Sequence record: NC_070873.1
DNA: 64,000 nucleotides
Source of the DNA: Escherichia phage St11Ph5
Reading direction: 5' to 3' (one strand)
Shown: one piece after another, positions 28,661 through 64,000 of the stretch
How positions within the stretch are numbered: the first letter of the stretch is position 1
How the letters are laid out: the number at the start of each line of letters is the position of its first letter
Notes under the pieces: generated by a model
Told to the model about the DNA's origin: nothing
The model's database searches: none
The model's input: the letters and a program-made list of their open reading frames with translations, nothing else
Program-made: the position numbers and the translations under genes

Positions 28661-31600
28661 TTAGTTAGTTAGGTTGAGCCATGGGTTCAGGGTATGGGCA
28701 CGTAAGCCTTGTCCTAAACCGAAGGAGTAACCGAGATTACCCTGTGCAGCAATGCTAAAGATGTTGTCCTGAATAGGAAGACCGACGTTACCAAACATGG
28801 TAGGAGTTGGAGCCAGCATAGCCATAGCAGCATGTACTGGGTTATTACGAATCATGGACACTGCAACTTTTGCAGAACGAATCTTAAAGTTGTAGAACCA
28901 CATTAAACCAACACTTTCCATATATCCACGGAAGCGTCCTGGTAAACGGTCATAGTTAATGAACTCTTCCGTTACACGTCCTAGTGCTTCTTCACGAGTC
29001 TTGCCTTTACGCTGGGTCAGTTCATCATAGATGATTGCTTTAGCGATAAAGTCAGAGTACTCAACTGTCTTCTGGATACCCTGGAAGAGGGCAGTATCCT
29101 TAGTGATAAGTGCATAACGCCCTGCGTTACGTACAGACTTAGGCAGCTTATCAGCCAGCTTATCCATGTATTCGTGAATCTTACCTTCAGTAATCAGGAT
29201 GTCATCACGCCCAATACCAGCATCTGCAATTGAAGAGAACTCACCAGCTTCTAACAGAGGCCAGATACTCAAACGTTTATGGCTATCCGTGATGGACTGA
29301 ATCTCAGCCTTAAGTTTACGAATCTGGTTCGGGTTGGTAGCTGCACGTAATTCTGCTTCTGCATCTACCTGGCGCAGACGAGATTTTAGGTACTGATTAA
29401 TCTCAGCAGTTTTCTGTGGAATGCTCTTAGCAATGTTCTTAACAGGTACACCACGAGCAACCATCTGGTAAAGGTTAGCCAGGAAGTTAACAGCAGGTAC
29501 AACTACTGACTTAACTACAATCAGAGTCTTAGCTTCTTTAACTAAGTTCTGAACCAGATTCTCACCACCCATTACATACTTATAAGCACGGTTGCCAAAT
29601 ACACCCAGCATAGCTTTCTTGAAGGTATCCAGTGTTTCTGGGGACCAACGAGAATTACCAGACCAGGCATCACCAACAGAAGCTGCACGATAACCAAGAG
29701 CATCATTGAGCATGTCACGACGTACCCATAACTCACCCGGACCAAACAGACTTTCTGCTTTCTGACGAGTTTCACTGTTCATCAGCTTAAGTGCATCAGC
29801 AGTTACTGGGTCCAGTTTAGAACCAAGAAGGTTAACGTACTGGGACTTATTAGAGGCAGACATCTTAATATCGTTCTCATACATGCTATGCAGATTCTCA
29901 ATAAGCATGTCGTTGAAACGCTGAGCCTTAGCCTCTTCCACCTGACGTCCACGCCATACACCAATCGCACGAGCAAGATGGTTCTCACCTTCGATGTGCT
30001 TCAGCATATTAGGGTCAATGGATTGCTCGTAAGCAACCACATTACCATTGGCATCATATACAGGCAGCAATGGTTCATTACCACGTTCACCGCGAGCCAG
30101 TGCTTTAGTAACACGGTCCACGGAAGGCTTGTCAGTGATACGACCAGCTACCATGGTTCCCATAGTAAAGCCTGTACCAAGGTCTACGCCACCAGCAGTA
30201 TTGCGAACGTTCTGCAGGATACCCTGTGAGAATGGAGCCTGTGCCTGTACTGGTGCAAAGTAGTAGCTACGTGCTGGCCCACGATTAGCAGAGCTACCCT
30301 GATAAGTGCCCAGTCGTACATAGGATTTCTCAATCAAATCAGCAAACTGACTATCTTCAGCAACAATCAGGTTAACACCCTGTTTAGTCTCACCAGGGAT
30401 ATATCCTTTGTACTGGTTCAAGGTTGCACGACTATCAGACTTAGCTTTAGCCATTTCGTCTTTACGCTGACCAACCAGGTAAGAAGTAGCAAAGTCCATA
30501 CCTTCAATTTCTGTCTGAGCCAGTGAAGATAACATCTCACGGTCAGTCTTATTCATTGCTTCCAGTGCATACAGAGTAATCAGTTTATCCAGCTGAGCTA
30601 CATCTACAACAGAACGTGTAGTCTTACGTTCGCCCAGCAATCGAGAAATTGCAGTAGCATTACGCAGCAGGTTATTACCAACAGTACCATTAATCATGTA
30701 CTGAGCCAGTTGCTTAGATTTACGGTTAATCAAAGACCAGTTACGTCCGGCTTGTTTCTGCAAATCTGCTTCCAGTTTATTAACCTCACGGTCAACAATC
30801 TTCTGGTCAGTTAGCAAGTCACGGATTTCAGCCAAAGACATAGTGTCACGCAGAACAGCTAAGTCAGTTTTACCCATACCGGTATGCATTGCTTTCCACT
30901 CCTCATTAGTCAGCTTACGGCTGAACTTAGATGCGATAGTGGTAGGTAAATGTTCACGGAACTGTTGACGGTCAGCCTGTACCTGTGCACGTACTGCTTT
31001 AATCAAATCATACACAGAAGCATTGCTCTTAGTACGTCCGATTATGTCATTAACCAGGTCATGGAAAGGTTGCCATACTTTACCCTGGTTCATTGCAGCC
31101 ATAACACCTTCAGCTACGATTGAACCATTCTTCTCTGTAGCAATAGCAGCTATCAGTTGTGCAGCATGAGCAGCACCTTTGACCAATGGGTTCTTGGTAT
31201 TAGCCGCAACTTCACGAGCACCTTCCAAAGCACGGGTAGACAGCACATCAATAGAATCCACCAGATACTGGTTAGCACGGTCGATAGCATTACCAGTAGG
31301 AGTAGCAACGGAATCATAGAAGGATTCTGCATTAAGACTGGTCTGCATGATTGTCTGAGCCAGTGCATCCATACCTTCCTGTACGTTAGTGGCTTTAGTA
31401 TCACCTGCAACACGAGCATTCAGACTAGCCATTGCAGCAGTACCGATGTTAGTCAGCATTGCGTCAACAGTATTGCCAGATTTCTTATCTGCTTTCATAA
31501 CAGGAATATCAGCCAGCACCTTACGTACTTCTTCACTTACCATTGCCAGACCAACAAAGGTAGGCAGTAAGGAAGAACGACCATGTGCATCAAACTCAAT

Positions 31601-34600
31601 GTTGTTAGCACCCATGATGGTATCGAACTTCTGCTGTGCATAGTAACGGTCAGCAGGGTTAGTACTATCTGGGTCAGCCATGAATACTTCGACGGTCAGG
31701 TTCTTAGTAACATGTGTGTAGTATTCCTGTGCACGAGCCAGGGCAGCTGGGTTAATAGCAGCCTCAGTAGCTAGTGCAGCAACAATGTTAGTGAAGAGAC
31801 GCTGTTCCTGCATATTCATGGTGAAGCCATGGGCCTGAACATCACGGGTTACTTTGGTTGCATTCACTACTGCATCAGAGAACTTACCTTTGCGAATTAC
31901 TTGCTGTACTGGTTCTGAACCAATGTAGTTAGTAATTAGCTTATCGAAGGTTTTCCCTAATTCTTCCAGACGGGTATTGTTACCATATGCTTTGTTATGG
32001 AACAGGGTAGTGTCTTTGGCTACAGTAGCAGTAGGAGCTTGTCCACGCATTACTACAGCAGAGTTAAACAGTAAGCCAGAGAACATATCATCTGCATTAG
32101 CCGGAGCTTTCTTACGTCCGAATACCAGACGCTTGATTGCTTCATATACAGCCTGAACCATCGTTTTAAGTGCAGTGGTTTTCTTCTGCTTATTAATAAG
32201 TTCACGGTTAGTTAATCCCCAAGCCATGTACTCATTCAGTGCAGCAGCTTTAGCCATTGCTGGTTCAATGAAGCCATTAGACAAGTGACCATTAATGGTA
32301 TTCAGTGCATCAGCATATGCTTCACGTACTGCCGGAGATTCATCATAAACATCCAGAGCACGGAACTGGTTCATCAGGTCTTCAATATTCTGGACAGCTT
32401 CATTAGGAGTACCTTCGTAGTGAGCCAGTACAGATTCAAAAGTAGAAGCATGTACCAATTCATGAACCAGAGTCTCTAATGAAGGAGTAACTAAGTAGAT
32501 GGTCTTATCTTCAAAGTTAGTCCAGCCATATGCATTACCTGCTTCAGCAGCCTCAATATCTTCTGGTGCTGGGCGAGTAATATTCTTCTCAATAGCATAG
32601 GCATCCAGTTGAGAAGGTGTACCATAAACAACCTTATAGTCTTTAGCAGCAAGGGATTTCTGTATTTCTTTCAATACTTCTTGCTGTTCAGGAGACATCT
32701 CTTTAGCCAATTTAGTAATAGCAGTATTAGACAGCAGACGTACACCAGATTTCAGTACACGACCAACTTGTTCCATTGCTGGTACTTCTTTCACTGGTTC
32801 TGCTTTAGCAGCACGTACTGCATCACGACGCTTGTTTAATTCAGCATCAAACAGTTCGTTCAGCTTAGCTACTTGCTGGTCTACAGTTAAACCTTCCAGA
32901 GAGATTTTACCGTTGTTCACATAAGGAGCACCAACAGCAGCCATCTGGTCAACAGTGACCTGTACCTGGTCCATTACCTTGTGACGAATATCTACACCCA
33001 GGGCAATGTTACGCAGATTACGCTCAATTAATGCAATACCAGAATCTTTAATCATAGAAATTTTATAATCTCTATCACCATCTACTCTGGTAATCTGAGC
33101 ACGTTGATCAAAGTCTAAAGCAGACTTCGCAATAGCATCTATTGCTGCATCGGACAGCTTATTTAAATCAACATTCTTAGCAAACTTAGAGAAAGACTCA
33201 TAAACATTCTTGATAGGGTTACCCTGCCAGGAAGTATATACAGCCTCGTTAGCTTTACGGCTTGCATCAGTAATGTCATTGATACCAATGTTCATACCAT
33301 CAAAGATTTTCAGGGTATTCTTTGGAGCACCTTTCATAGTAGAAAGAGTCTGCATCATCATGCCATCACCAGTACCGATGGTCATAAATGGAATACCTGC
33401 TACACCTGCCTGCGAAGGAGCATAGATGCTCATTGGCACACGCATACGGTCATCTAAGTTAGTAGCCAGTACTTGGTTAGCAACATCAGTATTTTCACTA
33501 CCTGCAATGTAGAAAGTCTGGGAACCAGTCTCAATCATTGGAGCCAGTGGTGCTAAGCTATTCTGAATTTCATTCAGTTCTTTCTGTGTTAAGAAATCAC
33601 CTTTCTTCCATGTTGGGTCTTTTTCTTTTTCTGCCAGTTTAGCCTGTACTGCCTGTTGGAACATATCCTGCAATACCAGAGATTGAATCTGGGTAGCCTT
33701 CTGTAAGTTCTCCGTAGATTGCATCAACCCTTCACCAACAGTGAATCGGATACTTTGTCTCATAGGCTCAACAAAGAAGTGCAGCATATTCTCTTGTAAG
33801 TTCTTAAGAGCATCCCCGGATACGGTAAACTCCCGGGGATCTAACTTACCAGTCAGAACACCATCTACTTCTTTAATGAATAACTTACCTTTACGCTTAG
33901 CTGGAATATTTCCAGTCAATGCTTTCATAGAAGTAAGGAAGGTATCCAGCATAGCCTGAGCATCGGCTTCAGATGCAGCCTCCTTACCAAACATCGCCAT
34001 AGCTGGGGAAATGTTAGGGTCAACAGCACGGGCTTTTAGAACGTCGCTTAAGCGTTCATAGATGGTATCAGTAATTGCACTTACCATCTTGCCAGCAATA
34101 CCACGTGCGCCAGAACCATAGATGGTAATGGTTAGTGGGTTTTTAGCGATACCACGTTTCAAGTCCAGAGTACCGTCTTCCTTAAGATTGAAGTCTTTAA
34201 TGAACAAATCCATTAGCTTCTGGAGATGGTCCATCTGGTTTATAACAGGAATATTTTTACTATAAGCATTGCGTAATTCATTTAGATAGAATTGCAGACT
34301 ATTAGTAGATGCTTCATACAGGTCAACACTGTCTTCCTGAGTATGATGCTCATTCATGGTCTTACCGGCTTTACCGAAGAACAAACCACCTTTGGCAGTA
34401 TTCTTAATCCAGTTTGGAGTGAACTTACCACCGGTCATTAATACCATTGCGTTGATTGGACCGTTGGTTACACCATCGGCTTCAACGTACAGTGGGGTAT
34501 TAAAGTTGGCACGGTCATCACTGTTAAGATAACGGGCATATTCCATAAGAGCCATAAGAGCTACAAAGGATTTATCATTACCAAGAGATGTTCTCAGAAT

Positions 34601-37600
34601 ATCCACTGCATCAGTAGGTAAGTATCCAGACTTATCAAACTCAACCATCATATCTACAGCAGGTTTCAGCTTACCTTCCAGAGCTTTGGTAAGTTCTTCT
34701 GACATAGTTTCACGAGTCATTTTATGAACTTTGATACCTAATGCCTGAGCCAGTCCAAGCTGGAAGCCTGAGAAGTCTTCATTGTTCTGATTCGATAAAT
34801 CCAGAGTAGCTTTAGTAGGTAAGATAGCCTCACGAACCAACTTAGCTGATTGAGGATTATATTTACCTAACATCTGCATACGACCAACACGGGTCATATT
34901 GTAAGCATAGTGAATAGGCACAGTGGAAATGTCTTCACTCTGTGCTCTCACCTGTTCAATAACAGAGAACAATTGGTTGTAAGAATCCTCTACTGAACGG
35001 TTTTTACCTTCCAGAGATTTAGCATGGTTCTTATTAAGTAAATCCTTATCCAGAGTACCAGCACCCATCAATTCGAGGATACGGTCTTTACCTAAAGCCT
35101 CATAGAACTGAACCATTGGGGTATGCACAAAGAACTCTGTAGCCTGCTCTGCTTTAAGGGCAGCTTTCTGTTCCGGAGTATTACGGACAGCAGGGTTACG
35201 TAACTGAGTATGAGCCACGGGAGGAATGTCATCACCGAAATACAGTTTCTCTACTGGTTCTACGAGGACAGCTTCCTCGATAGCAGTAGGGAATTTGTTA
35301 ATAGCGTCGGTATCATCCAGCTTCTCAATGGTATACAGACCAATAGTCTTATTGGATTCTGGGTCAATTTCAGACACATCCAGCATGGACTCTTTAACTT
35401 CACCCATTTCAATAAGGGAAGATAGAATCTCTGTAGCCATTGCCATCGGGATACCTTTGGTATAACCCAGTGGTGCATCAGCATTACGATTAAGTCCCCA
35501 GTAAGATTCAATCTTTTGAGCCAGTGAGTTAGTAGCTTCTACTAAGGTTTGTGCATTCTCAAATTCTGCGAGGATACCTTCTGGTAACAAGGAAGCATTT
35601 ACACCAGTAATTGCAGCCACATCCTGCATGTCTTTAATAGCAGCATTCTGTGTAGCAGTAAGTCGCCATTGCAGACCAGCAAGTACAGCAGTCTCTAACA
35701 ATTGGTCATTGAACTTAAAGGTGTCTCCGTCTTTCTCTACGATATTAAGTAACTTACCACCTACCCAACGGTTAGCTTCAGTACCTTCTGCAAAACGTTT
35801 ACCAACGTTCTTGTTAGCAAGGAATTTAGTCAGACGGTCAGACAAAGTAGTCTTCAGAGTTTCACCAAACTCAAATAAGTCCTGGTAACGCTTAATCACA
35901 TCACTTGTGAGAGCGTTATTTTCTTTTTGAGTAAATGCTTCAAAACGAGCAGCAGAAGACAGTGCTTTATTAACATCAGTTAAAGGAGATTCAGAACCAA
36001 TGGTACGGGACTTAGGTTCTTCTGGCAGACTAAATGCTTTAAGGAACTGGTTCGGTGTCTTTTCATTGTTATAGACAGGGAACACTGCTTCCATTCCCGA
36101 TAGAGGTTTACCACCAACAGTATAGTCTGCTTTCAGTTGAGCCAGTGATACTTCTTCTTTCTCAACGTTATTGGTATTAAGCCCAGATGTATCTACACCA
36201 ATCTGAATCAGTGCATTGTTTGCTTCTACGAATGATTGAACAGTATTGAATTGTTCAGCAGTTAGCTTCTGATTATCAAACAATTGCAGAGATACGAACG
36301 GTTGCTCACTACCTTTATAGAAAGTAGAACGTACAGCACCAGTATCCAGAGACATGTCACGATAACCATCATGACCAAATACGTCAGACAGACTGATATG
36401 GTCGCCATTGGAACCAACAACAGTACCATCAGCGAATAGCCATGGACTATCTCTACGGTCACCATACTTATTAAGAGTATCTTGTGAAATAGTATTCTCT
36501 TTCACATAAGAATCTCTTTCAGATTCAGTAGGCTGTTCAACGATATCCTGTTTTTCAGACTGGTTCTCAGGTTCTTTTACGGTTTGTGGTTTAGACTCTT
36601 TAATAGTAGGTTCTGTTTTAACAGCTTCACTAACAGAGGGTTTAGTCTGTACAGTAGGGGTAACTGGTTCCTGTTTTGTAACAGGAGCTTCATCAACCTG
36701 ATTCACTGGTTCATTAGTCTGTTGGGATTGAGCAGCATCAAGATTGCCCTGACGGAACTCTTTAACTACCTGGGCAGCAGGCTTGTTCAGACGTGAATCC
36801 AATGGGGTAACTTTCACATGAGAAACATTAAGCTCCGGGTAAGCCGTAGCAAGTGCGTTAGCAATATCAGCTACGGTCTTGGCTTCCAGTCCTACTTGCT
36901 GGGCAAACTTAACAGACTTGGTATCATACGGATTGACACCGAGGCCAGTACGACTACGTACCCATTCACGCGAGGGAGTAAGAGCCTGATAATGGACAGA
37001 CTTATTCTTATCCGCATTCCCAGAAATCAGATGCTCATTCAACGCTCCGACCTTATTCTGCATGTGCTGGGCGAACTTCATAAAGTCGTCGAGATAAGCG
37101 GAAGCCAAATCGAAGTTACCAGAGTTGTACGCAGAACGAATGCGTTTAGCATGTTGCAACGCAGAGTACTGGCCTTCATTAGAACGAGACTCGTCGGTTT
37201 TAATCTGTTTACTAACAATGTCTTGAGGACGTAAGCCTAGTTCTTCTGCTTTAGCATCAAATTCTCGTGCTCCTTGTAATAGAGCAGCAGCAGATTGCAG
37301 GGCAGCACGCTGACGATTCCCCAGTGTAATCTTACCTTCACTTGCATGTTTCAGAACCATGTTCACTGAATCTGCATCCAGCACTTCTGGAGACATATCA
37401 GCAGCCATAGCAATGTTGTTTGCCTGAGCTTGGTTAGCTTCTTCAGTAGCTTTCAGTTTACCTGCTTCAGCCTGTTCCTGAATCATAGAATGGATGGCAC
37501 GGAATGCACGGAGTACCTTCGGTGTATTCTGAACATTAGCCATCAGGCCAGAGAATTGGTCAACAATATTAGCAGCAGGAGAACCCTGTTCCAGATTAGC

Positions 37601-39466
37601 CAGAGCACCAGGGTCACGGTTAATGAAGCTATCCATAGACATGATGTTGTCATACATCTGGATTGCAGCTTCCATTTGAACGTTAGGGTCTTCGGCAGTA
37701 TTAACCAGGTCAGCCATCTTCTGAATAGCTTCAACACGGTTAGTGGAACCAGAAACAGCTTCACGGATTGCCGGGCTAGCTTGTTCCAGTTCTACTGGGT
37801 CAAACTTCATTGCCTGAGTTAAGTCAGCAGCATACTGAGTAGCAGCAGCTTTCTCTTCAGGAGAAATATCCATTGCATCTACTGCTTCCTGAACAGTTGC
37901 TTGAGCCTGTTCTGCCTGAGCAGTAGCTTCTTGTGCAGCAGCATTAACTGTAGCGTCTGATACAGGGGATGCTTGTTCATTTCGCTTAGCAACTTCTTCG
38001 CCACGCTGAACCAGGATGTTAGTAATAGGAGAAGCAGCTTTTGCTAATGCATTACCAGCCAGAGAAGCAGCAGCCATGGTAGTACGTACAGCAGGACCAA
38101 CGGCAGCACCAGCAGCTTTAACAGTTGCACCAGGAGCTTGAGCAACTCCAGCAGAACCGAAGCCATACAATGCACCAAGCCCGGTTTGTTCACCAACACC
38201 TTTAAGCAAATCACGCTTAGCATCTACATTACCTTGAATTGCCTTGTTCTGTGCAAGCTGACTTGTACCAGACTGGATACCTTCTTCTACAGTCTCACGC
38301 AGCATGTTAGAACCAGCACCAGCCAGTGAACCTACCTTAAGTGGATTAAGTTCAAACTTGGATACCAGTGGACCAGTAAGAGCAGCAACCGGAGCAGTTA
38401 AGCCAGCAGCAGTAATACCTGTTTCAGATGCAGTTTGACGACGTGCTTCTTCAGGAGATAAACCATCTTTAATATGCTGTTGGTATACAGGGGATTTAGC
38501 AGCCAGTTCACTAAACGGCATTTCCATAATTTCATTAGCAGTTTGTTGGTATGCACCACCAGCTTCCATACCACCAATTGCTATAGCAGGTGCAGCAACA
38601 CGACCAGTAGCCAATGCAACCTGTGCAGGACGTGAACCTAATTCAGCAGCTAAGGTAATACCCTTAACAGCTTTATCCCCACCTACCATTACTTTACCGA
38701 GTGCGGATACACCACGAATCAATGGACCACCGGTAAAGAGAGAACCAACACCCTCAGCCAGACCATCAGTAGCAGCCATGCCATTGGACAAAGTGTTAAC
38801 AACAGAATCGTAAGCATCACGTCCAATGCGAGACAGGGAAGCAACGAGTTCGCTTTCTCCTTTAGCAATATCCTGCTTATAGAGTTTCTCATTCTCCTGT
38901 GCAGATATTACGTTCTGGTTCTGTACTACATTACGACGAGCATTCAATGCATCAGACTGTAGGTTATGTACACCTTTATTCAACCAGTCAAGACCGGAAG
39001 CAATGGATGCCCCGGCATTATCATTGACCAAGCCTGTGCCAAGAGCAGCAATGCCCCCAAGGGTATTAGCAACACCAAGACCAACACCAGAAAGGGTATC
39101 ACCAAGTGCTTCACCATATGTACGACTCTTAGTTAAATCACGACGAACAGCATTAGCTGCATTGACACGAGCATTGAGAATGTCCATTCCTTGCTCATTG
39201 CCGTACTTGTTTATGATTTCAAGAGGAGAGGCGTTAGTAAAATCTGCCTGAATAGAACCTGGGTCAAATGCACCAGCACCTAAGTTACCAGTACGACCTG
39301 CCTGCAATTGGTAGGCATTCTGAGGAGTTAATTGGAAAGGGTTTTGCCCTTGTTCAGCTTGTTTCCGAGAGGTTGCAGTAGAGACATCGACTTGCTTAGC
39401 AGTAGTGATGCTGTCTGCGAAACCTGCCAGACGGTCAAATGTTGACATAGCATGATTCCTGTTCAA
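28661..39466 (-). CDS. virion-encapsidated RNA polymerase (N4 vRNAP-like giant protein)
   Basis: Single 3601-aa ORF; size and genome position match N4 gp50; central segment ITIYGSGARG compatible with single-subunit RNAP motif B. Confidence 0.8.
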   Translation of the reverse strand: MNRNHAMSTFDRLAGFADSITTAKQVDVSTATSRKQAEQGQNPFQLTPQNAYQLQAGRTGNLGAGAFDPGSIQADFTNASPLEIINKYGNEQGMDILNARVNAANAVRRDLTKSRTYGEALGDTLSGVGLGVANTLGGIAALGTGLVNDNAGASIASGLDWLNKGVHNLQSDALNARRNVVQNQNVISAQENEKLYKQDIAKGESELVASLSRIGRDAYDSVVNTLSNGMAATDGLAEGVGSLFTGGPLIRGVSALGKVMVGGDKAVKGITLAAELGSRPAQVALATGRVAAPAIAIGGMEAGGAYQQTANEIMEMPFSELAAKSPVYQQHIKDGLSPEEARRQTASETGITAAGLTAPVAALTGPLVSKFELNPLKVGSLAGAGSNMLRETVEEGIQSGTSQLAQNKAIQGNVDAKRDLLKGVGEQTGLGALYGFGSAGVAQAPGATVKAAGAAVGPAVRTTMAAASLAGNALAKAASPITNILVQRGEEVAKRNEQASPVSDATVNAAAQEATAQAEQAQATVQEAVDAMDISPEEKAAATQYAADLTQAMKFDPVELEQASPAIREAVSGSTNRVEAIQKMADLVNTAEDPNVQMEAAIQMYDNIMSMDSFINRDPGALANLEQGSPAANIVDQFSGLMANVQNTPKVLRAFRAIHSMIQEQAEAGKLKATEEANQAQANNIAMAADMSPEVLDADSVNMVLKHASEGKITLGNRQRAALQSAAALLQGAREFDAKAEELGLRPQDIVSKQIKTDESRSNEGQYSALQHAKRIRSAYNSGNFDLASAYLDDFMKFAQHMQNKVGALNEHLISGNADKNKSVHYQALTPSREWVRSRTGLGVNPYDTKSVKFAQQVGLEAKTVADIANALATAYPELNVSHVKVTPLDSRLNKPAAQVVKEFRQGNLDAAQSQQTNEPVNQVDEAPVTKQEPVTPTVQTKPSVSEAVKTEPTIKESKPQTVKEPENQSEKQDIVEQPTESERDSYVKENTISQDTLNKYGDRRDSPWLFADGTVVGSNGDHISLSDVFGHDGYRDMSLDTGAVRSTFYKGSEQPFVSLQLFDNQKLTAEQFNTVQSFVEANNALIQIGVDTSGLNTNNVEKEEVSLAQLKADYTVGGKPLSGMEAVFPVYNNEKTPNQFLKAFSLPEEPKSRTIGSESPLTDVNKALSSAARFEAFTQKENNALTSDVIKRYQDLFEFGETLKTTLSDRLTKFLANKNVGKRFAEGTEANRWVGGKLLNIVEKDGDTFKFNDQLLETAVLAGLQWRLTATQNAAIKDMQDVAAITGVNASLLPEGILAEFENAQTLVEATNSLAQKIESYWGLNRNADAPLGYTKGIPMAMATEILSSLIEMGEVKESMLDVSEIDPESNKTIGLYTIEKLDDTDAINKFPTAIEEAVLVEPVEKLYFGDDIPPVAHTQLRNPAVRNTPEQKAALKAEQATEFFVHTPMVQFYEALGKDRILELMGAGTLDKDLLNKNHAKSLEGKNRSVEDSYNQLFSVIEQVRAQSEDISTVPIHYAYNMTRVGRMQMLGKYNPQSAKLVREAILPTKATLDLSNQNNEDFSGFQLGLAQALGIKVHKMTRETMSEELTKALEGKLKPAVDMMVEFDKSGYLPTDAVDILRTSLGNDKSFVALMALMEYARYLNSDDRANFNTPLYVEADGVTNGPINAMVLMTGGKFTPNWIKNTAKGGLFFGKAGKTMNEHHTQEDSVDLYEASTNSLQFYLNELRNAYSKNIPVINQMDHLQKLMDLFIKDFNLKEDGTLDLKRGIAKNPLTITIYGSGARGIAGKMVSAITDTIYERLSDVLKARAVDPNISPAMAMFGKEAASEADAQAMLDTFLTSMKALTGNIPAKRKGKLFIKEVDGVLTGKLDPREFTVSGDALKNLQENMLHFFVEPMRQSIRFTVGEGLMQSTENLQKATQIQSLVLQDMFQQAVQAKLAEKEKDPTWKKGDFLTQKELNEIQNSLAPLAPMIETGSQTFYIAGSENTDVANQVLATNLDDRMRVPMSIYAPSQAGVAGIPFMTIGTGDGMMMQTLSTMKGAPKNTLKIFDGMNIGINDITDASRKANEAVYTSWQGNPIKNVYESFSKFAKNVDLNKLSDAAIDAIAKSALDFDQRAQITRVDGDRDYKISMIKDSGIALIERNLRNIALGVDIRHKVMDQVQVTVDQMAAVGAPYVNNGKISLEGLTVDQQVAKLNELFDAELNKRRDAVRAAKAEPVKEVPAMEQVGRVLKSGVRLLSNTAITKLAKEMSPEQQEVLKEIQKSLAAKDYKVVYGTPSQLDAYAIEKNITRPAPEDIEAAEAGNAYGWTNFEDKTIYLVTPSLETLVHELVHASTFESVLAHYEGTPNEAVQNIEDLMNQFRALDVYDESPAVREAYADALNTINGHLSNGFIEPAMAKAAALNEYMAWGLTNRELINKQKKTTALKTMVQAVYEAIKRLVFGRKKAPANADDMFSGLLFNSAVVMRGQAPTATVAKDTTLFHNKAYGNNTRLEELGKTFDKLITNYIGSEPVQQVIRKGKFSDAVVNATKVTRDVQAHGFTMNMQEQRLFTNIVAALATEAAINPAALARAQEYYTHVTKNLTVEVFMADPDSTNPADRYYAQQKFDTIMGANNIEFDAHGRSSLLPTFVGLAMVSEEVRKVLADIPVMKADKKSGNTVDAMLTNIGTAAMASLNARVAGDTKATNVQEGMDALAQTIMQTSLNAESFYDSVATPTGNAIDRANQYLVDSIDVLSTRALEGAREVAANTKNPLVKGAAHAAQLIAAIATEKNGSIVAEGVMAAMNQGKVWQPFHDLVNDIIGRTKSNASVYDLIKAVRAQVQADRQQFREHLPTTIASKFSRKLTNEEWKAMHTGMGKTDLAVLRDTMSLAEIRDLLTDQKIVDREVNKLEADLQKQAGRNWSLINRKSKQLAQYMINGTVGNNLLRNATAISRLLGERKTTRSVVDVAQLDKLITLYALEAMNKTDREMLSSLAQTEIEGMDFATSYLVGQRKDEMAKAKSDSRATLNQYKGYIPGETKQGVNLIVAEDSQFADLIEKSYVRLGTYQGSSANRGPARSYYFAPVQAQAPFSQGILQNVRNTAGGVDLGTGFTMGTMVAGRITDKPSVDRVTKALARGERGNEPLLPVYDANGNVVAYEQSIDPNMLKHIEGENHLARAIGVWRGRQVEEAKAQRFNDMLIENLHSMYENDIKMSASNKSQYVNLLGSKLDPVTADALKLMNSETRQKAESLFGPGELWVRRDMLNDALGYRAASVGDAWSGNSRWSPETLDTFKKAMLGVFGNRAYKYVMGGENLVQNLVKEAKTLIVVKSVVVPAVNFLANLYQMVARGVPVKNIAKSIPQKTAEINQYLKSRLRQVDAEAELRAATNPNQIRKLKAEIQSITDSHKRLSIWPLLEAGEFSSIADAGIGRDDILITEGKIHEYMDKLADKLPKSVRNAGRYALITKDTALFQGIQKTVEYSDFIAKAIIYDELTQRKGKTREEALGRVTEEFINYDRLPGRFRGYMESVGLMWFYNFKIRSAKVAVSMIRNNPVHAAMAMLAPTPTMFGNVGLPIQDNIFSIAAQGNLGYSFGLGQGLRAHTLNPWLNLTN

Positions 39467-60746: not shown

Positions 60747-61407
60747 GTACTAGTTTAGAACCAGCAACCTCTTTAGTAGGTACTCCACTATTGATTGCAT
60801 TAATTTGCTGTTCAGCTAATGCAGCAAGCGTTGCCTTGAGGTCAGTTAACCCAGAGTTCTCTCTCAAGTCCAGATTGATATTCGTTACCTGGTCTTTCGG
60901 TTTAGCTAAGTGGGTAAGGATAGAGTTAGCTGCATCACATCTTACCTTCTCACTTGCTGCTGTAGTCATCAGTTCAACCTGAACATTAATTGCCTTCTGA
61001 TAATTGTCCTGGTTTACAATCCACACTGGAACCAAACTTTGTTCCATGATGAGGTTAACTAGCTTACCTCTGTGATAAGCAGATACATAAGCACTAATAT
61101 CTTTCTCACTGGTTCCTCGTGCAACAAGTTCTGCTTGTCGGTTAGGGAATGTTTTGAAGTAGGCTTCCTTATTGGAGTAGCCCATGTGTTTATAAGTCAC
61201 ATACTGAACTGCATTCATGTAGTCCTGTGTCTTAAACTTACCCTCCTTCATTACACCAGAGTAGGAGATAAAGTTTTCACGGAAGGACTCAGCAACCAGT
61301 TGGTCTTGGGTAATGTTGTTAATTGTATCTACCAACTCCTGGGTCACACTGTTTTTGAAGTTAGCAGGTAAGGCATTAATAATCTGCTGCTTAGTTAGTT
61401 CACTCAT
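60718..61407 (-). CDS. putative terminase small subunit
   Basis: 229-aa ORF directly upstream of terminase large subunit, overlapping its start; by position only. Confidence 0.35.
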   Translation of the reverse strand: MSELTKQQIINALPANFKNSVTQELVDTINNITQDQLVAESFRENFISYSGVMKEGKFKTQDYMNAVQYVTYKHMGYSNKEAYFKTFPNRQAELVARGTSEKDISAYVSAYHRGKLVNLIMEQSLVPVWIVNQDNYQKAINVQVELMTTAASEKVRCDAANSILTHLAKPKDQVTNINLDLRENSGLTDLKATLAALAEQQINAINSGVPTKEVAGSKLVRADEDITDV

Positions 61408-61578
61408 ACTTATCTCGCTACAAAGTTATGTCTATTAAAGAAGATTCTTTTCTTGGGGTGAGTTACCCCTTGAAGAAACGATACCATACAGTTACACTTT
61501 AGTCATGATATAGAAAAAGTTCATGATACTAAATAGTATGTAATGTTCCGATGATCCTATTCCCAAAAGGAGTAACCT
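61408..61578. promoter_or_regulatory. divergent AT-rich intergenic region
   Basis: 170-bp AT-rich gap between divergent genes; repeated TCATGATA motifs; hairpin GGGGT-GAGTT-ACCCC. Confidence 0.3.
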
Positions 61579-61869
61579 TTGAGAATCTATATGAGAGTCC
61601 ACGACTCTAAAGATGAATACAAGGAGCTAGACCACACCAAAGCTGGTATTCTTTCAGATGACATTATCATCACACATGATGAAGACACTTACCATGAATT
61701 AGCTGGGATGATGCTTTTAGAGAATCGACCTGGCATTAAAATCTTAGAACCAAGAGAAACTTACTCTTTAGAAAAACGCCCATCAGCTCTTGTGTTCTTC
61801 ACAAAATTACCTCATAGTGTCTCCGTCAGGCGAAGCAAAGACAGTGTTCGGATGACGGTGACGATGTGA
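61579..61869 (+). CDS. small protein, paralog family member 1
   Basis: 96 aa; TTG start with AAGGAG RBS (alternative ATG 61591); shares D/E-x-H-E-hydrophobic-x-G core with four downstream ORFs. Confidence 0.4.
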   Translation: MRIYMRVHDSKDEYKELDHTKAGILSDDIIITHDEDTYHELAGMMLLENRPGIKILEPRETYSLEKRPSALVFFTKLPHSVSVRRSKDSVRMTVTM

Positions 61870-62069
61870 TTAGTCATGCCGCCTAGTAGACAGTGGCGGT
61901 ACTCGTAAAGAGTTAATAACTTCTACAGTCAGGGTTGCCCGGCTCCTTTCCTACCTAGTAGGCTAACGATACACATGTATCTAGGGTGATGAACTGACCC
62001 GTGATAGAAAACGGTAAGGGGTAGAGTCGAGAGGCTCTACCTCATTTCTTTTTCAGGAGGTATGCAAAT
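61870..62069 (+). promoter_or_regulatory. structured intergenic region with repeated CCTAGTAG and terminator-like hairpin
   Basis: CCTAGTAG at about 61882 and 61954; hairpins CCGCC...GGCGG and CCTAC-CTA-GTAGG; stem GGTAGAG/CTCTACC with T-tract just before RBS of next gene. Confidence 0.3.
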
Positions 62070-62468
62070 ATGAGCATCTACTGTTTTGATATTGATATTA
62101 CCGGAGTACTACTTATACAGGAACCTTATTACCTTGGGGAACCAGAAGTAGTAAGTAAGTTCATTACCCCGTGGCAAACAGTATTCTTACCTGACTGCGA
62201 AGAGTCCCATGAGGTTATTGGTTCTCTTTTCCTATCCAACCTGCAACTCAATACTAAGATACTTACTGAACCAAAGGTGTATGATCTTTCCTTTTATAGC
62301 GACTTTCAAATGCTCTTCCCTGGTGTACGTTTCTATAAGATAGATGGTTGGGAATTGATAGCTGACCATAATGTTTTTAATAAAACACTTTCCATTTACT
62401 TCAGACCTATTCCTAAAGGAAGGAAAATCAATCATGAAATTCATAATGACCATCCCCAGTTTTGCTGA
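62070..62468 (+). CDS. small protein, paralog family member 2
   Basis: 132 aa; AGGAGG RBS; motif VFLPDCEESHEVIGSLFL. Confidence 0.45.
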   Translation: MSIYCFDIDITGVLLIQEPYYLGEPEVVSKFITPWQTVFLPDCEESHEVIGSLFLSNLQLNTKILTEPKVYDLSFYSDFQMLFPGVRFYKIDGWELIADHNVFNKTLSIYFRPIPKGRKINHEIHNDHPQFC

Positions 62469-62748
62469 AAGGGAATCTATGTACACAACTGACTTCACTT
62501 TAGAAGAAGTCATGAACAGCAATCCTCAGCAAGTAATCCTGGTTCCTACCTTAGAAGATTATCATGAGGTAAGGGGTCAACTCTTCTTAGCAGGTAATGA
62601 CCGTAAGGTTGTATGTATTATTCCTCCTTCTGTCTATACCAACTATAACGCTAATGACCCTATCCCTTACATGATGGTATCTGATGACTATCAGTGGGAG
62701 AGTCGTTATGTGAAGGGTGAATACCGTTACTACTATACAAGGAAGTAA
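62434..62748 (+). CDS. small protein, paralog family member 3
   Basis: ORF 62371..62748; preferred ATG 62434 after AAGGAAGG; motif VILVPTLEDYHEVRGQLFL; overlaps member 2 by about 35 nt. Confidence 0.45.
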   Translation: MKFIMTIPSFAERESMYTTDFTLEEVMNSNPQQVILVPTLEDYHEVRGQLFLAGNDRKVVCIIPPSVYTNYNANDPIPYMMVSDDYQWESRYVKGEYRYYYTRK

Positions 62749-62751
62749 GTT

Positions 62752-63075
62752 ATGCGCTTCTACTCATTAGTTGCACTAAGTACAAGCTGCTATCTCAGTA
62801 CTGTAACTAAACAGGATTGTTTAAATGGTAAACTGGATGGAACTACTATCCTGTATGAACCAAATGAAGAAGCAGATGAGTTCATAGGTACATGCCTAAT
62901 GTTAGGTATACCCATCACTTTCATTAAGATAGATACATCAGTTGAGATATCTGAATTTGCAAGGGTGTACATCCTATCAACTGCTGAACCTATGGTAGTA
63001 ACTACCCTAACAGGTAGACTTATTACCCTCTACCCATCTACCTCATATTTATCTAGCGACGAGTGTGCCCTATGA
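62752..63075 (+). CDS. small protein, paralog family member 4
   Basis: 107 aa; motif TILYEPNEEADEFIGTCLML. Confidence 0.45.
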   Translation: MRFYSLVALSTSCYLSTVTKQDCLNGKLDGTTILYEPNEEADEFIGTCLMLGIPITFIKIDTSVEISEFARVYILSTAEPMVVTTLTGRLITLYPSTSYLSSDECAL

Positions 63076-63413
63076 ATAGAGTACTGTACCTTCATCAATA
63101 TACAGATGATGTCTCTGTTTACTCCGAGAATGTCAATAAAGCTATTGATTGGTTACTGCCACAAGACTGTCATATGCTTATGCTATCTGGCGAGTTAGCA
63201 GATAGTACCCGTGGTTCCATCCTTCTACTTAACAGTCTAGCTAAGTTAACCATCCTTAACCCAGGTGAATCCATAGAGATACCTGCAGGTGAATCTGCAT
63301 TTTTGTTCTTTGAACCAAGGATAGAAGAAGGGTTTGTTGGGCTTACTATAGATAGCAGACCTAATAAAGATTTTAAAAGAGTACGTATCATCACCCCAAG
63401 GGTATCTCTATGA
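63072..63413 (+). CDS. small protein, paralog family member 5
   Basis: ORF 63063..63413; ATG 63072 overlaps upstream stop (ATGA); motif MLMLSGELADSTRGSILL. Confidence 0.4.
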   Translation: MNRVLYLHQYTDDVSVYSENVNKAIDWLLPQDCHMLMLSGELADSTRGSILLLNSLAKLTILNPGESIEIPAGESAFLFFEPRIEEGFVGLTIDSRPNKDFKRVRIITPRVSL

Positions 63414-63739
63414 AACTAAACACATCCCCCTATCCAGTACAGCTAGAAGTAGTATTTGACCAGGATACCTTCATTAAAAAGTACAAGAAACTTAAAGGGT
63501 ATGAGCCAGACTTGGACGATTGTAAGGGGTATACTTCTTACTCTGGAAATCGAGTATTGATCGGTATCTTTAGGGAACCTTTACATACACTCATCCACGA
63601 ACTCAATCATTTCTGTTTATGGGTGTTTGACTACATAGGTATGCCTATAAACTCTGCCAATAGTGAAGCATATTGCTATTACTATGACCATATCTTCTCC
63701 CAGATTCCTTCCTCCTATTTAACTGCTTATAAGGGCTAA
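63410..63739 (+). CDS. small HExxH-motif protein (possible minimal zinc metallopeptidase-like)
   Basis: 109 aa; LIHELNHF motif; ATGA overlap with upstream gene. Confidence 0.4.
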   Translation: MKLNTSPYPVQLEVVFDQDTFIKKYKKLKGYEPDLDDCKGYTSYSGNRVLIGIFREPLHTLIHELNHFCLWVFDYIGMPINSANSEAYCYYYDHIFSQIPSSYLTAYKG

Positions 63740-63740
63740 C

Positions 63741-63875
63741 ATGTGGTATGTAACAGTCAAGGGCTTACCTGAACCAGTAATAGTACACAGCCTAGCTTTC
63801 GTAGAAGTTGGTGGACCATTGCTTGTAAACGGTAAGCTGTATGAGGTTTTAGGTATTAAACGCTATGACGAATAA
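63741..63875 (+). CDS. hypothetical small protein
   Basis: 44-aa ORF starting 2 nt after upstream stop; followed by hairpin GGGGTA...TACCCC. Confidence 0.25.
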   Translation: MWYVTVKGLPEPVIVHSLAFVEVGGPLLVNGKLYEVLGIKRYDE

Positions 63876-64000
63876 GGGGTAGATAGCTACCCCAACCATC
63901 TTTCATATTAATACCTCAAAGCTATCTGCTTATAGAGATAGTGCCTATAATATTTTTGCATGTCAAAATTGTGATAGCTATGTACAGCCATAGTGGTGTG

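Follow-up and report, generated by a model that had tools for sequence, protein, structure and literature searches.

Covariation supports a conserved pseudoknotted RNA, ended by an intrinsic terminator, in N4-like phages

We analyzed a 64,000-nucleotide (nt) stretch of DNA from Escherichia phage St11Ph5 (sequence record NC_070873.1), which we refer to in its entirety as the window. Comparison with related phages indicates that the plus strand at ~61856-62053 encodes a single structured, pseudoknotted RNA of ~200 nt that is ended by an intrinsic terminator; in this part of the genome the homologues of the phage genes gp70 and gp71, both on the plus strand, are separated by a gap of 200 nt. The element, a pseudoknotted RNA motif conserved among N4-like phages, is described neither in Rfam 15 nor in the literature that we searched. 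It is highly probable that selection acts on the structure of the plus-strand RNA. As to function, we favor a terminator-ended regulatory RNA that pairs with Shine-Dalgarno (SD) sequences, a reading to which we assign a probability of roughly 0.4.

The non-coding DNA at this locus varies less than the genes that flank it. In an alignment of 22 relatives, nucleotide diversity is 0.00-0.11 across 61790-62060, which covers the 3' end of gp70 and the whole gap behind it, compared with 0.15-0.28 in the body of gp70 and 0.15-0.30 in gp71. Nucleotide sequence is frozen in the 3'-terminal part of gp70 (61790-61869). Diversity falls to 0.000-0.003 in the core (61490-61549) of a second gap, the one that separates gp70 from the divergent gene gp69. 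Given that diversity is lower in the gaps than in the gene bodies, the non-coding DNA is under stronger constraint than the genes. The parts of the RNA in the window, where members of the motif are called by phage or contig name, are as follows:

61856-61998, plus strand: core of the structured RNA, matched by covariance model R1 (178 bits, E 4e-50)
61878-61900, plus strand: helix H1, stem GCCGCC/GGCGGU with the 11-nt loop UAGUAGACAGU; includes the first copy of the octamer CCTAGTAG; the stem covaries among CG, GU, AU, GC, and UA
61886-61890, plus strand: 5' strand of the pseudoknot, GUAGA (H1 loop positions 3-7), predicted to pair with 61922-61926
61901-61913, plus strand: helix H1b, ACUC-GUAAA-GAGU; 4/4 pairs covary; variable in length and missing from minimal members
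61914-61920, plus strand: A-rich linker UAAUAAC; RUAAC in most members, GAAAC in Axy10
61922-61926, plus strand: 3' strand of the pseudoknot, UCUAC, from covariation and a descriptor scan
61928-61932 with 61994-61998, plus strand: P-outer, GUCAG with CUGAC, a stacked helix
61934-61940 with 61984-61990, plus strand: P-inner, GUUGCCC with GGGUGAU, followed by a GA(A) bulge and then the P-outer strand
61943-61949, plus strand: single-stranded CUCCUUU, anti-SD-like, just past the 5' strand of P-inner
61950-61962, plus strand: helix H2, CCUAC-CUA-GUAGG; 100% of cells paired and 5/5 pairs covary; includes the second CCTAGTAG
61968-61981, plus strand: helix H3, GAUAC-ACAU-GUAUC; 4/5 pairs covary; within the genus the second pair is AU in 9 and GC in 7
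61999-62014, plus strand: helix H4, CCGU-GAUAGAAA-ACGG; CCGA...UCGG, a compensatory change, in Moo19 and L066, and CCGG...UCGG in L079 and L085
62018-62053, plus strand: intrinsic terminator with an 11-base-pair (bp) stem, a GAGA loop, and a AUUUCUUUUU tail

The helices are recovered by RNAalifold from 16 close relatives, with covariation within the genus. H2, for example, reads CCUAC-CUA-GUAGG in the window, CCUAC-UCC-GUAGG in G7C, CCAAC-CCA-GUUGG in phiG17, and CCUGA-UUCG-UCAGG in Jgk1; its stem is preserved through compensatory changes while its loop differs among relatives. H3 alternates between GAUAC/GUAUC and GGUAC/GUACC, and one long-range pair is seen as G.U, A-U, and C-G. All 12 pairs of P-outer and P-inner covary, and both helices appear in the minimum free energy fold of the single sequence. 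The covariance model R1, built from Gamaleyavirus-type sequences only, matches the window once and also finds one full-length match in each of several distant phages: phiAxp-3 (1e-12), inbricus (2e-12), Axy10 (3e-9), N4 (1e-8), and also Moo19. Among metagenomic contigs, matches extend down to 4e-3, with weaker ones near 0.3. Every R1 match lies upstream of gp69 and on the opposite strand.

In a model-fitted alignment of 27 sequences related by descent, for which the shuffle control overstates the significance of the nested-helix counts, 96.3% of cells pair, compared with 72.8% in shuffles, and 0 of 500 shuffles reach the observed value. Changes on both sides are seen in 32 of the 37 pairs. The covariation score of 0.515 exceeds that of both controls, namely 0.161 in shuffles and no more than 0.075 with partners slid by 1-3 columns. 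The overstated control counts against the strength of this evidence, as does the folding energy of single sequences, which is only modestly better than that of shuffles (z -0.4 to -2.3).

The pseudoknot was left out of R1, and the evidence for it is independent of that model. Columns 40-44 pair with columns 137-141 in 92.5% of cells, and 3 of the 5 pairs change on both sides (pair types UA19/GU4/CG3, AU19/GC7, and AU18/UA2/CG1). The strands read GUAGA:UCUAC in the window and phiAxp-3, GCGGA:UCCGC in inbricus, GGUAC:GUACC in Axy10, GGAGU:ACUUC in N4, CAGUAG:CUACUG in Jgk1, and GUGG:CCAC in Moo19; GUGAG:CUCAC and GCAAA:UUUGC also occur. When the phages compared are read side by side, the 5 nt on the 5' side of the outer helix are in each case complementary to H1 loop positions 3-7, and the loop pattern YAG.....RGU is also found in N4, Axy10, inbricus, and phiAxp-3. 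This covariation supports an H-type pseudoknot between the H1 loop and UCUAC, in which the near-invariant, A-rich AUAAC is the strand that crosses the GC-rich stem. A strict structural descriptor, which requires pseudoknot complementarity and whose pair types illustrate the motif rather than adding independent evidence, matches once in the window and once in each of 38 of the 80 gp69-bearing IMG/VR loci, always on the expected strand; it has no match in 428 kb of reversed sequence.

The pairs also reveal which strand is under selection. Many of the conserved pairs are G.U, which would be A.C mismatches if read on the other strand. The constraint is thus on the plus-strand RNA and not on duplex DNA or a cruciform.

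The smallest members define what the motif needs. Minimal members (e.g., L082 and L107) consist of H1, the linker, the pseudoknot, the two stacked helices, and a loop of 7-8 nt, a total of ~65 nt plus the terminator; therefore H1b, H2, H3, and H4 are optional decorations. H1b is expanded in Jgk1, L037, Moo19, and L066-L072. In addition to the helices, near-universal features are an A-rich linker, a GA bulge, and a CUCC with which the inner loop begins; the GA lies directly 5' of the P-outer 3' strand in nearly all members. At the other end, inside the 3' end of gp70, there is a 23-nt imperfect inverted repeat (61812-61834 with 61847-61869, 74% complementary). It could form a further 5' RNA helix that explains the frozen synonymous sites, with covariation that is ambiguous through coding constraint.

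The predicted 3' end of the RNA has the sequence features of an intrinsic terminator. The stem at 62018-62043 has 11 pairs, 6 of them G-C, and is followed by ATTTCTTTTT. The records of PhAPEC5 and PhAPEC7 annotate a terminator at the same site. The two arms change together: they are GGGGUAGAGUC/GGCUCUACCUC in the window, GGGGACUAGUC/GGCUAGUCCCC in Jgk1, GGGGCAUAGUC/GGCUAUGCCCC in Moo19, and GGGGAUAUGU/GCAUAUCCCC in L037, and the stem of L066 behaves likewise. A hairpin terminator follows the motif in the flanks that we examined, including those without an adjacent gp71-like gene, and is less canonical in L107 and L118. Some 20 nt past the terminator, the distant metagenomic members L079, L085, L124, and L096 contain a short conserved block, CUCUAAGUUA...CUAG, which could be a genome-end or promoter element.

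Where the motif is found in N4-like phages, N4 included, there is one copy per genome, adjoining gp69/gp68. In N4, gp70 is followed by a CCCGCC-CAGGAGUUGGU-GGCGGG hairpin with an 11-nt loop, AAUAAC, a long-range helix with GGGUGA, a terminator, and the ribosome-binding site (RBS) of gp71. The same layout is present in the Achromobacter phages Axy10, phiAxp-3, Axy12, and Axy04, in the Pseudomonas phage inbricus (Rothmandenesvirinae), in Moo19 and Jgk1, and in several IMG/VR contigs; the carriers are phages of Escherichia, Shigella, Klebsiella, Achromobacter, and Pseudomonas, together with many metagenomic contigs. The RNA is more widely conserved than gp70 and gp71, and in distant members no gp70 homologue lies 5' of it. 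Rfam 15 has no match at the element (E<=10 for 61300-62200 of the window; E<=1 for the N4, Axy10, and L037 loci), and we found no description of this RNA in the searched literature. In the records that we opened it is unannotated, apart from a bare "terminator" feature in two. A tRNA or another known RNA family was considered and rejected: ARAGORN reports only the tRNA-Ala at 25908, and Rfam reports nothing.

Our favored reading of the function comes from the single-stranded sequence between P-inner and H2. In all members examined, CUCC (CUUCC in one case) occupies a fixed position in the structure. It extends to ACCUCCU(U) in several of them, the sequence of the 3' tail of 16S ribosomal RNA, and a second copy of this tail is found in H1b of Moo19, L068/L072, and L037/L065 (CACCUCCUUA, ACCUCCUUA, and CCUCCUUA), which represent several independent lineages. 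The longest identity to the 16S tail, CACCUCCUUA, is 10/10 (Moo19 and L072; P ~0.001 relative to shuffles). In the window, the AAAGGAG of gp70 is exactly complementary to CUCCUUU. The element has both a terminator at its 3' end and a conserved single-stranded seed, as expected of a trans-acting small RNA. We favor a discrete, terminator-ended regulatory RNA because the terminator is present even without a following gene, because distant members lack gp70, and because CUCC is essentially universal.

If this is correct, rightward transcription would produce the RNA, which would have a start of its own or form the 3' part of the gp70 message and would end at the terminator at 62018-62053. The exposed CUCC loop would pair with ribosome-binding sites, and the pseudoknot would serve as a rigid scaffold or stabilizer. 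The targets may be the neighboring small genes on the same transcript, in cis, such as gp70 with its AAAGGAG; alternatively, they may be other messages, in trans. We infer the 5' end, the timing of expression, and the SD pairing alike from sequence.

Several results weigh against this proposal. In none of the lineages did we find a promoter directly upstream of the motif, nor do the lineages share a promoter motif there; the RNA could be processed from the gp70 message or be its 3' end. Complementarity to ribosome-binding sites is generic, the window contains no extended trans target beyond generic AAGGAG/AAAGGAG sites, and no lineage-specific covariation was found between the loop and the RBS of the neighboring gene. 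In addition, the N4 copy has neither H2 nor H3 and contains only UCUCC. A broader version of the idea, which we think unlikely, is a Schitoviridae family-wide RNA gene whose pseudoknot scaffold displays one or two copies of the 16S 3' tail and which acts as an RBS sponge reprogramming late translation, as a decoy for a factor, of host or phage, recognizing this tail, or as an RNA cofactor in packaging.

The main rival is a riboswitch-like leader for gp71. As a cis-acting leader or attenuator, riboswitch-like or protein-binding, the RNA would allow a ligand or protein to set the level of read-through past 62018-62053 into gp71 and the small genes. An H-type pseudoknot with an A-rich linker is a typical feature of small riboswitch aptamers, and the window, N4, phiAxp-3, and inbricus have the classic arrangement in which a structured domain leads into an intrinsic terminator, an RBS 2 nt farther on, and a gene; in N4 and inbricus, gp71 homologues lie 3' of the motif. 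Yet no conserved antiterminator was found. By inspection, the UUCUAC:GUAGAG pairing possible in the window is missing from phiAxp-3, inbricus, Moo19, and Jgk1, and we rejected a terminator/antiterminator switch on these grounds. Nor are the downstream genes uniform: that of phiAxp-3 is not detectably related to gp71, and in L079, L085, L124, L096, and L082 no gene starts directly past the terminator. No Rfam riboswitch matches the element. Taken together, we consider the leader rather unlikely. The other RNA-level explanation is that the molecule acts by its shape, as a decoy or scaffold, for example one that mimics the 16S 3' tail and titrates a factor of host or phage, as a partner of gp70, or as a cofactor of packaging or replication near the terminase genes. 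The RNA outlasts gp70 and gp71 in conservation and occurs once per genome beside gp69/gp68, and its identities to the 16S 3' tail, of at most 10 nt, fall in two separate loops, all of which fits such a role. The covarying loop pairing could also be intermolecular; in an analogous case, the intermolecular loop pairing of phi29 pRNA was reportedly first misread as intramolecular. We regard action by shape as doubtful. A stimulator of stop-codon read-through or frameshifting was also rejected: the gp70 stop codon is 8 nt from the start of H1 here, the corresponding distance in the Achromobacter and Pseudomonas phages is 65-80 nt, and gp70 is missing altogether from distant members.

Two further explanations invoke DNA rather than RNA, and one of them stems from a first-pass annotation of this locus, which had proposed that repeated octamers may be operator or promoter elements. 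The strings that it reported are all there: TCATGATA at 61503 and 61521, CCTAGTAG at 61882 and 61954 (72 nt apart), CCGCC-11 nt-GGCGG at 61879-61899 (the full stem, GCCGCC/GGCGGT, is 61878-61900), CCTAC-CTA-GTAGG at 61950-61962, and the terminator. The hairpins and the terminator are real and are kept in relatives. The octamers are repeated as described, although not above chance: counted over the whole window, CCTAGTAG occurs 2 times compared with 2.5 expected, and TCATGATA 4 times compared with 3.1 expected, and the 721-nt region has 16 families of direct repeats of 8 nt or longer. N4 and Axy10 lack both octamers and yet keep the architecture. The first CCTAGTAG supplies a pseudoknot strand, and the second coincides with the H2 loop plus the 3' arm of that helix. 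Because the H2 loop varies among relatives (CTA, TCC, CCA, TTCG, or TACT) and the changes in its stem are compensatory, the second copy is an accident of one loop variant, and the two copies are incidental pieces of the RNA fold rather than operator repeats. For duplex-DNA sites, in which CCTAGTAG in the second gap and TCATGATA in the first would be bound by a regulator or polymerase, there remain the pair of TCATGATA copies, invariant across the genus and set in an inverted repeat of the divergent AT-rich gap, where a promoter or operator is expected, and the palindrome TCATGA. An operator role for TCATGATA is possible. As an account of the whole locus, duplex sites are very improbable: the sequence of the second CCTAGTAG is free to change although the stem there persists, neither octamer is enriched or needed for the architecture in N4 and Axy10, and binding sites in duplex DNA explain neither helices that contain G.U pairs nor a covarying pseudoknot. 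We find it similarly hard to credit that a phage polymerase, either the virion RNA polymerase (vRNAP), as at N4 early promoters, or RNAPII, uses the hairpins as DNA-hairpin promoters or as a site for replication priming. H2 has the geometry of an N4 promoter, with its 5-bp stem and 3-nt loop, and the G7C type, CCTAC-TCC-GTAGG, even has the TCC loop; in addition, the middle promoters of phage LUZ7 are GC-rich hairpins (PMC9163698). The 11-nt loop of H1, in contrast, does not fit vRNAP-promoter geometry. The early promoters of G7C are xxxGC-TCC-GCxxx followed by TTATGGA, and H2 has A and T where GC/GC is required (AC-TCC-GT in G7C). The loop of H2 reads CTA in the window and CCA, TTCG, or TACT elsewhere, and the helix is missing from N4 and from minimal members. 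Finally, vRNAP promoters occur only at the genome end that enters first, the left one, and the element is at the right end. On the comparison with the G7C early promoters, a vRNAP hairpin promoter was rejected.

The comparison also brought up three unannotated hairpins of the N4 vRNAP promoter type near the left end of G7C (~88-110, ~500-520, and ~1225-1245), two of which are followed by TTATGGA. The G7C early promoter hairpins read GTTGC-TCC-GCAAC, ACGC-TCC-GCGT, and GACGC-TCC-GCGTC, in agreement with the description of those in N4.

By its sequence, the source phage is G7C-like, a member of Gamaleyavirus among the N4-like Schitoviridae: the compared region, 61300-64000, is 85-93% identical to G7C-like coliphages, and the minus strand has an open reading frame (ORF) of 3601 amino acids (aa) at 28661-39466. 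Comparison with the annotated records of G7C and PhAPEC5 places the locus at the right genome end. The neighboring features are as follows:

ending at 61407, minus strand: gp68 and gp69, a terminase-like pair, from the G7C/PhAPEC5 comparison
61408-61578, no strand assigned: divergent gap between gp69 (minus) and gp70 (plus), GC content 0.339
61453-61467, no strand assigned: small hairpin GGGGT-GAGTT-ACCCC (GGGGTGAGTTACCCC) with GATTCTTTTCTT on its 5' side, ~46-60 nt upstream of the gp69 start
61490-61549, no strand assigned: near-invariant core of the divergent gap, 60 nt, with both TCATGATA copies and an imperfect inverted repeat
61579-61869, plus strand: gp70 homologue, the first of the paralogs in the first-pass annotation, with a TTG start at 61579, 6 nt past AAAGGAG
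62055-62468, plus strand: RBS AGGAGG (62055-62060) and gp71 homologue (ATG at 62070), matching N4 gp71 with E 6e-8

Homologues of gp70 in databases are mostly called at 96 aa. An AlphaFold2 (AF2) model of gp70 has a predicted local distance difference test score (pLDDT) of 91.5, and fold comparison gave no convincing match. More small rightward ORFs lie downstream of gp71. The tRNA-Ala (anticodon CGC), the sole tRNA found by ARAGORN, is at 25908-25979, between the rightward and leftward gene blocks. Separate transcription of gp70, as first suggested, is borne out to the extent that a conserved intrinsic terminator ends the unit past gp70; for this reason gp70 and the structured region plausibly form their own transcription unit. 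The related claim that both gaps are functional non-coding DNA stands, in that gp70 and gp71 are far less conserved than either gap, and what falls away is their description as repeated operators or promoters. The emphasis on octamers was therefore misplaced, while both gaps are regulatory and gp70 ends in its own terminator.

The divergent gap was correctly described as AT-rich: its GC content of 0.339, compared with 0.43 for the window, is in the lowest 0.9% of 171-nt windows. Both flanking units, gp69 (leftward) and gp70 plus the RNA (rightward), probably have their promoters and 5' leaders here. No sigma-70-type promoter with at least 9/12 matches and a 16-18 nt spacer lies inside 61408-61578 or 61790-61880, where weak late-type promoters are possible, and over the whole region there are 4 sigma-70 matches, fewer than the 9.0 in shuffles. 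The cores of N4 and Axy10 differ from that of the window and are very similar to each other (TTAGACTTTAG...GTCTCC...ACAGAGAC...GGGGAnCCTATTGC). The gap sequence common to the window, N4, and Axy10 consists only of ACTTTAG and CCTATTCCC (CCTATTSCYC), each of which is single-copy in the window. We rejected CTAAAGTNTAA, CCTATTSCYC, and TAGTCATGAT from the gap core as a general promoter motif, as they are not enriched elsewhere in the window. Because these motifs occur nowhere else in the window and there is no sigma-70 match at threshold, we read the gap as a locus-specific promoter and leader. N4 keeps the hairpin at 61453-61467 as GGGGT-TAGC-ACCCC, with an identical 5' flank; the hairpin may be a structure in the leader of the gp69 message, which is late. 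We also observed that 61518-61535 in the gap core is 78% complementary over 18 nt to 61978-61995, on the 3' side of the inner helix, with 7 consecutive pairs (AGUUCAU/AUGAACU). This may well be chance.

At the far end of the window, the final 70 nt (63930-64000) match the G7C sequence directly preceding the G7C terminal repeat, which begins TGACAGGGGC; the end of the window thus appears to lie at about the boundary of the right repeat. The same stretch includes a perfect TATAAT (CCTATAATATTTTT), as does the same place in N4. Directly past the last small ORF, a hairpin on the minus strand, GGGGTAGCTATCTACCCC (63876-63893), was flagged as terminator-like by the scan of that strand.

Although N4 has served for decades as a model in the study of transcription, the records that we opened do not annotate this RNA beyond a terminator feature in two. 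Its expression would give the N4-like infection program an RNA component. The motif offers a compact, well-defined pseudoknot for structural and functional study and a nucleotide marker for Schitoviridae genomes, and it raises the question of an anti-SD mimic as a means of phage translation control.

The only report of small RNAs in an N4-like phage that we found in the searched literature concerns the Pseudomonas phage LUZ7, where late, terminator-ended candidates of <250 nt map between orf69 and orf70, downstream of the orf64-orf69 read-through unit, with no structure or motif described (PMC9163698). Placed by the published description only, they apparently belong to a locus other than the right-end gp69/gp70. 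The N4 vRNAP early promoters are likewise short GC-rich hairpins, and H2 shares their 5-bp stem and 3-nt loop, but H2 lacks their defining GC-TCC-GC heptamer, its loop changes among relatives, and it sits at the opposite genome end. HK022 put is also a structured RNA, encoded in cis upstream of intrinsic terminators in a phage transcript; put, however, consists of two simple stem-loops without a pseudoknot, and there is no similarity. Like phi29 pRNA, the element is a structured phage RNA near a genome end, beside packaging genes and with covarying loop complementarity. The two have no sequence or Rfam similarity, and N4-like phages have a conventional small and large terminase pair; pRNA is a lead only. 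The preQ1-II and SAM-II/V aptamers share a loop that pairs downstream, an A-rich strand along a GC-rich stem, and a terminator and RBS that follow; unlike them, the phage RNA has a second large helical domain and downstream genes that are not uniform. It matches nothing in Rfam, and no conserved switch between terminator and antiterminator was found. Staphylococcus RNAIII, through its hairpins, and RsaE are RNAs with C-rich loops that mask SD sequences. The N4-like element is unrelated to them in sequence or in Rfam, is phage-encoded, has an H-type pseudoknot, and has putative targets only. What it has in common with them, in a comparison drawn from general knowledge, is the design of a structured, terminator-ended RNA with a CUCC/UCCC loop complementary to GGAG.

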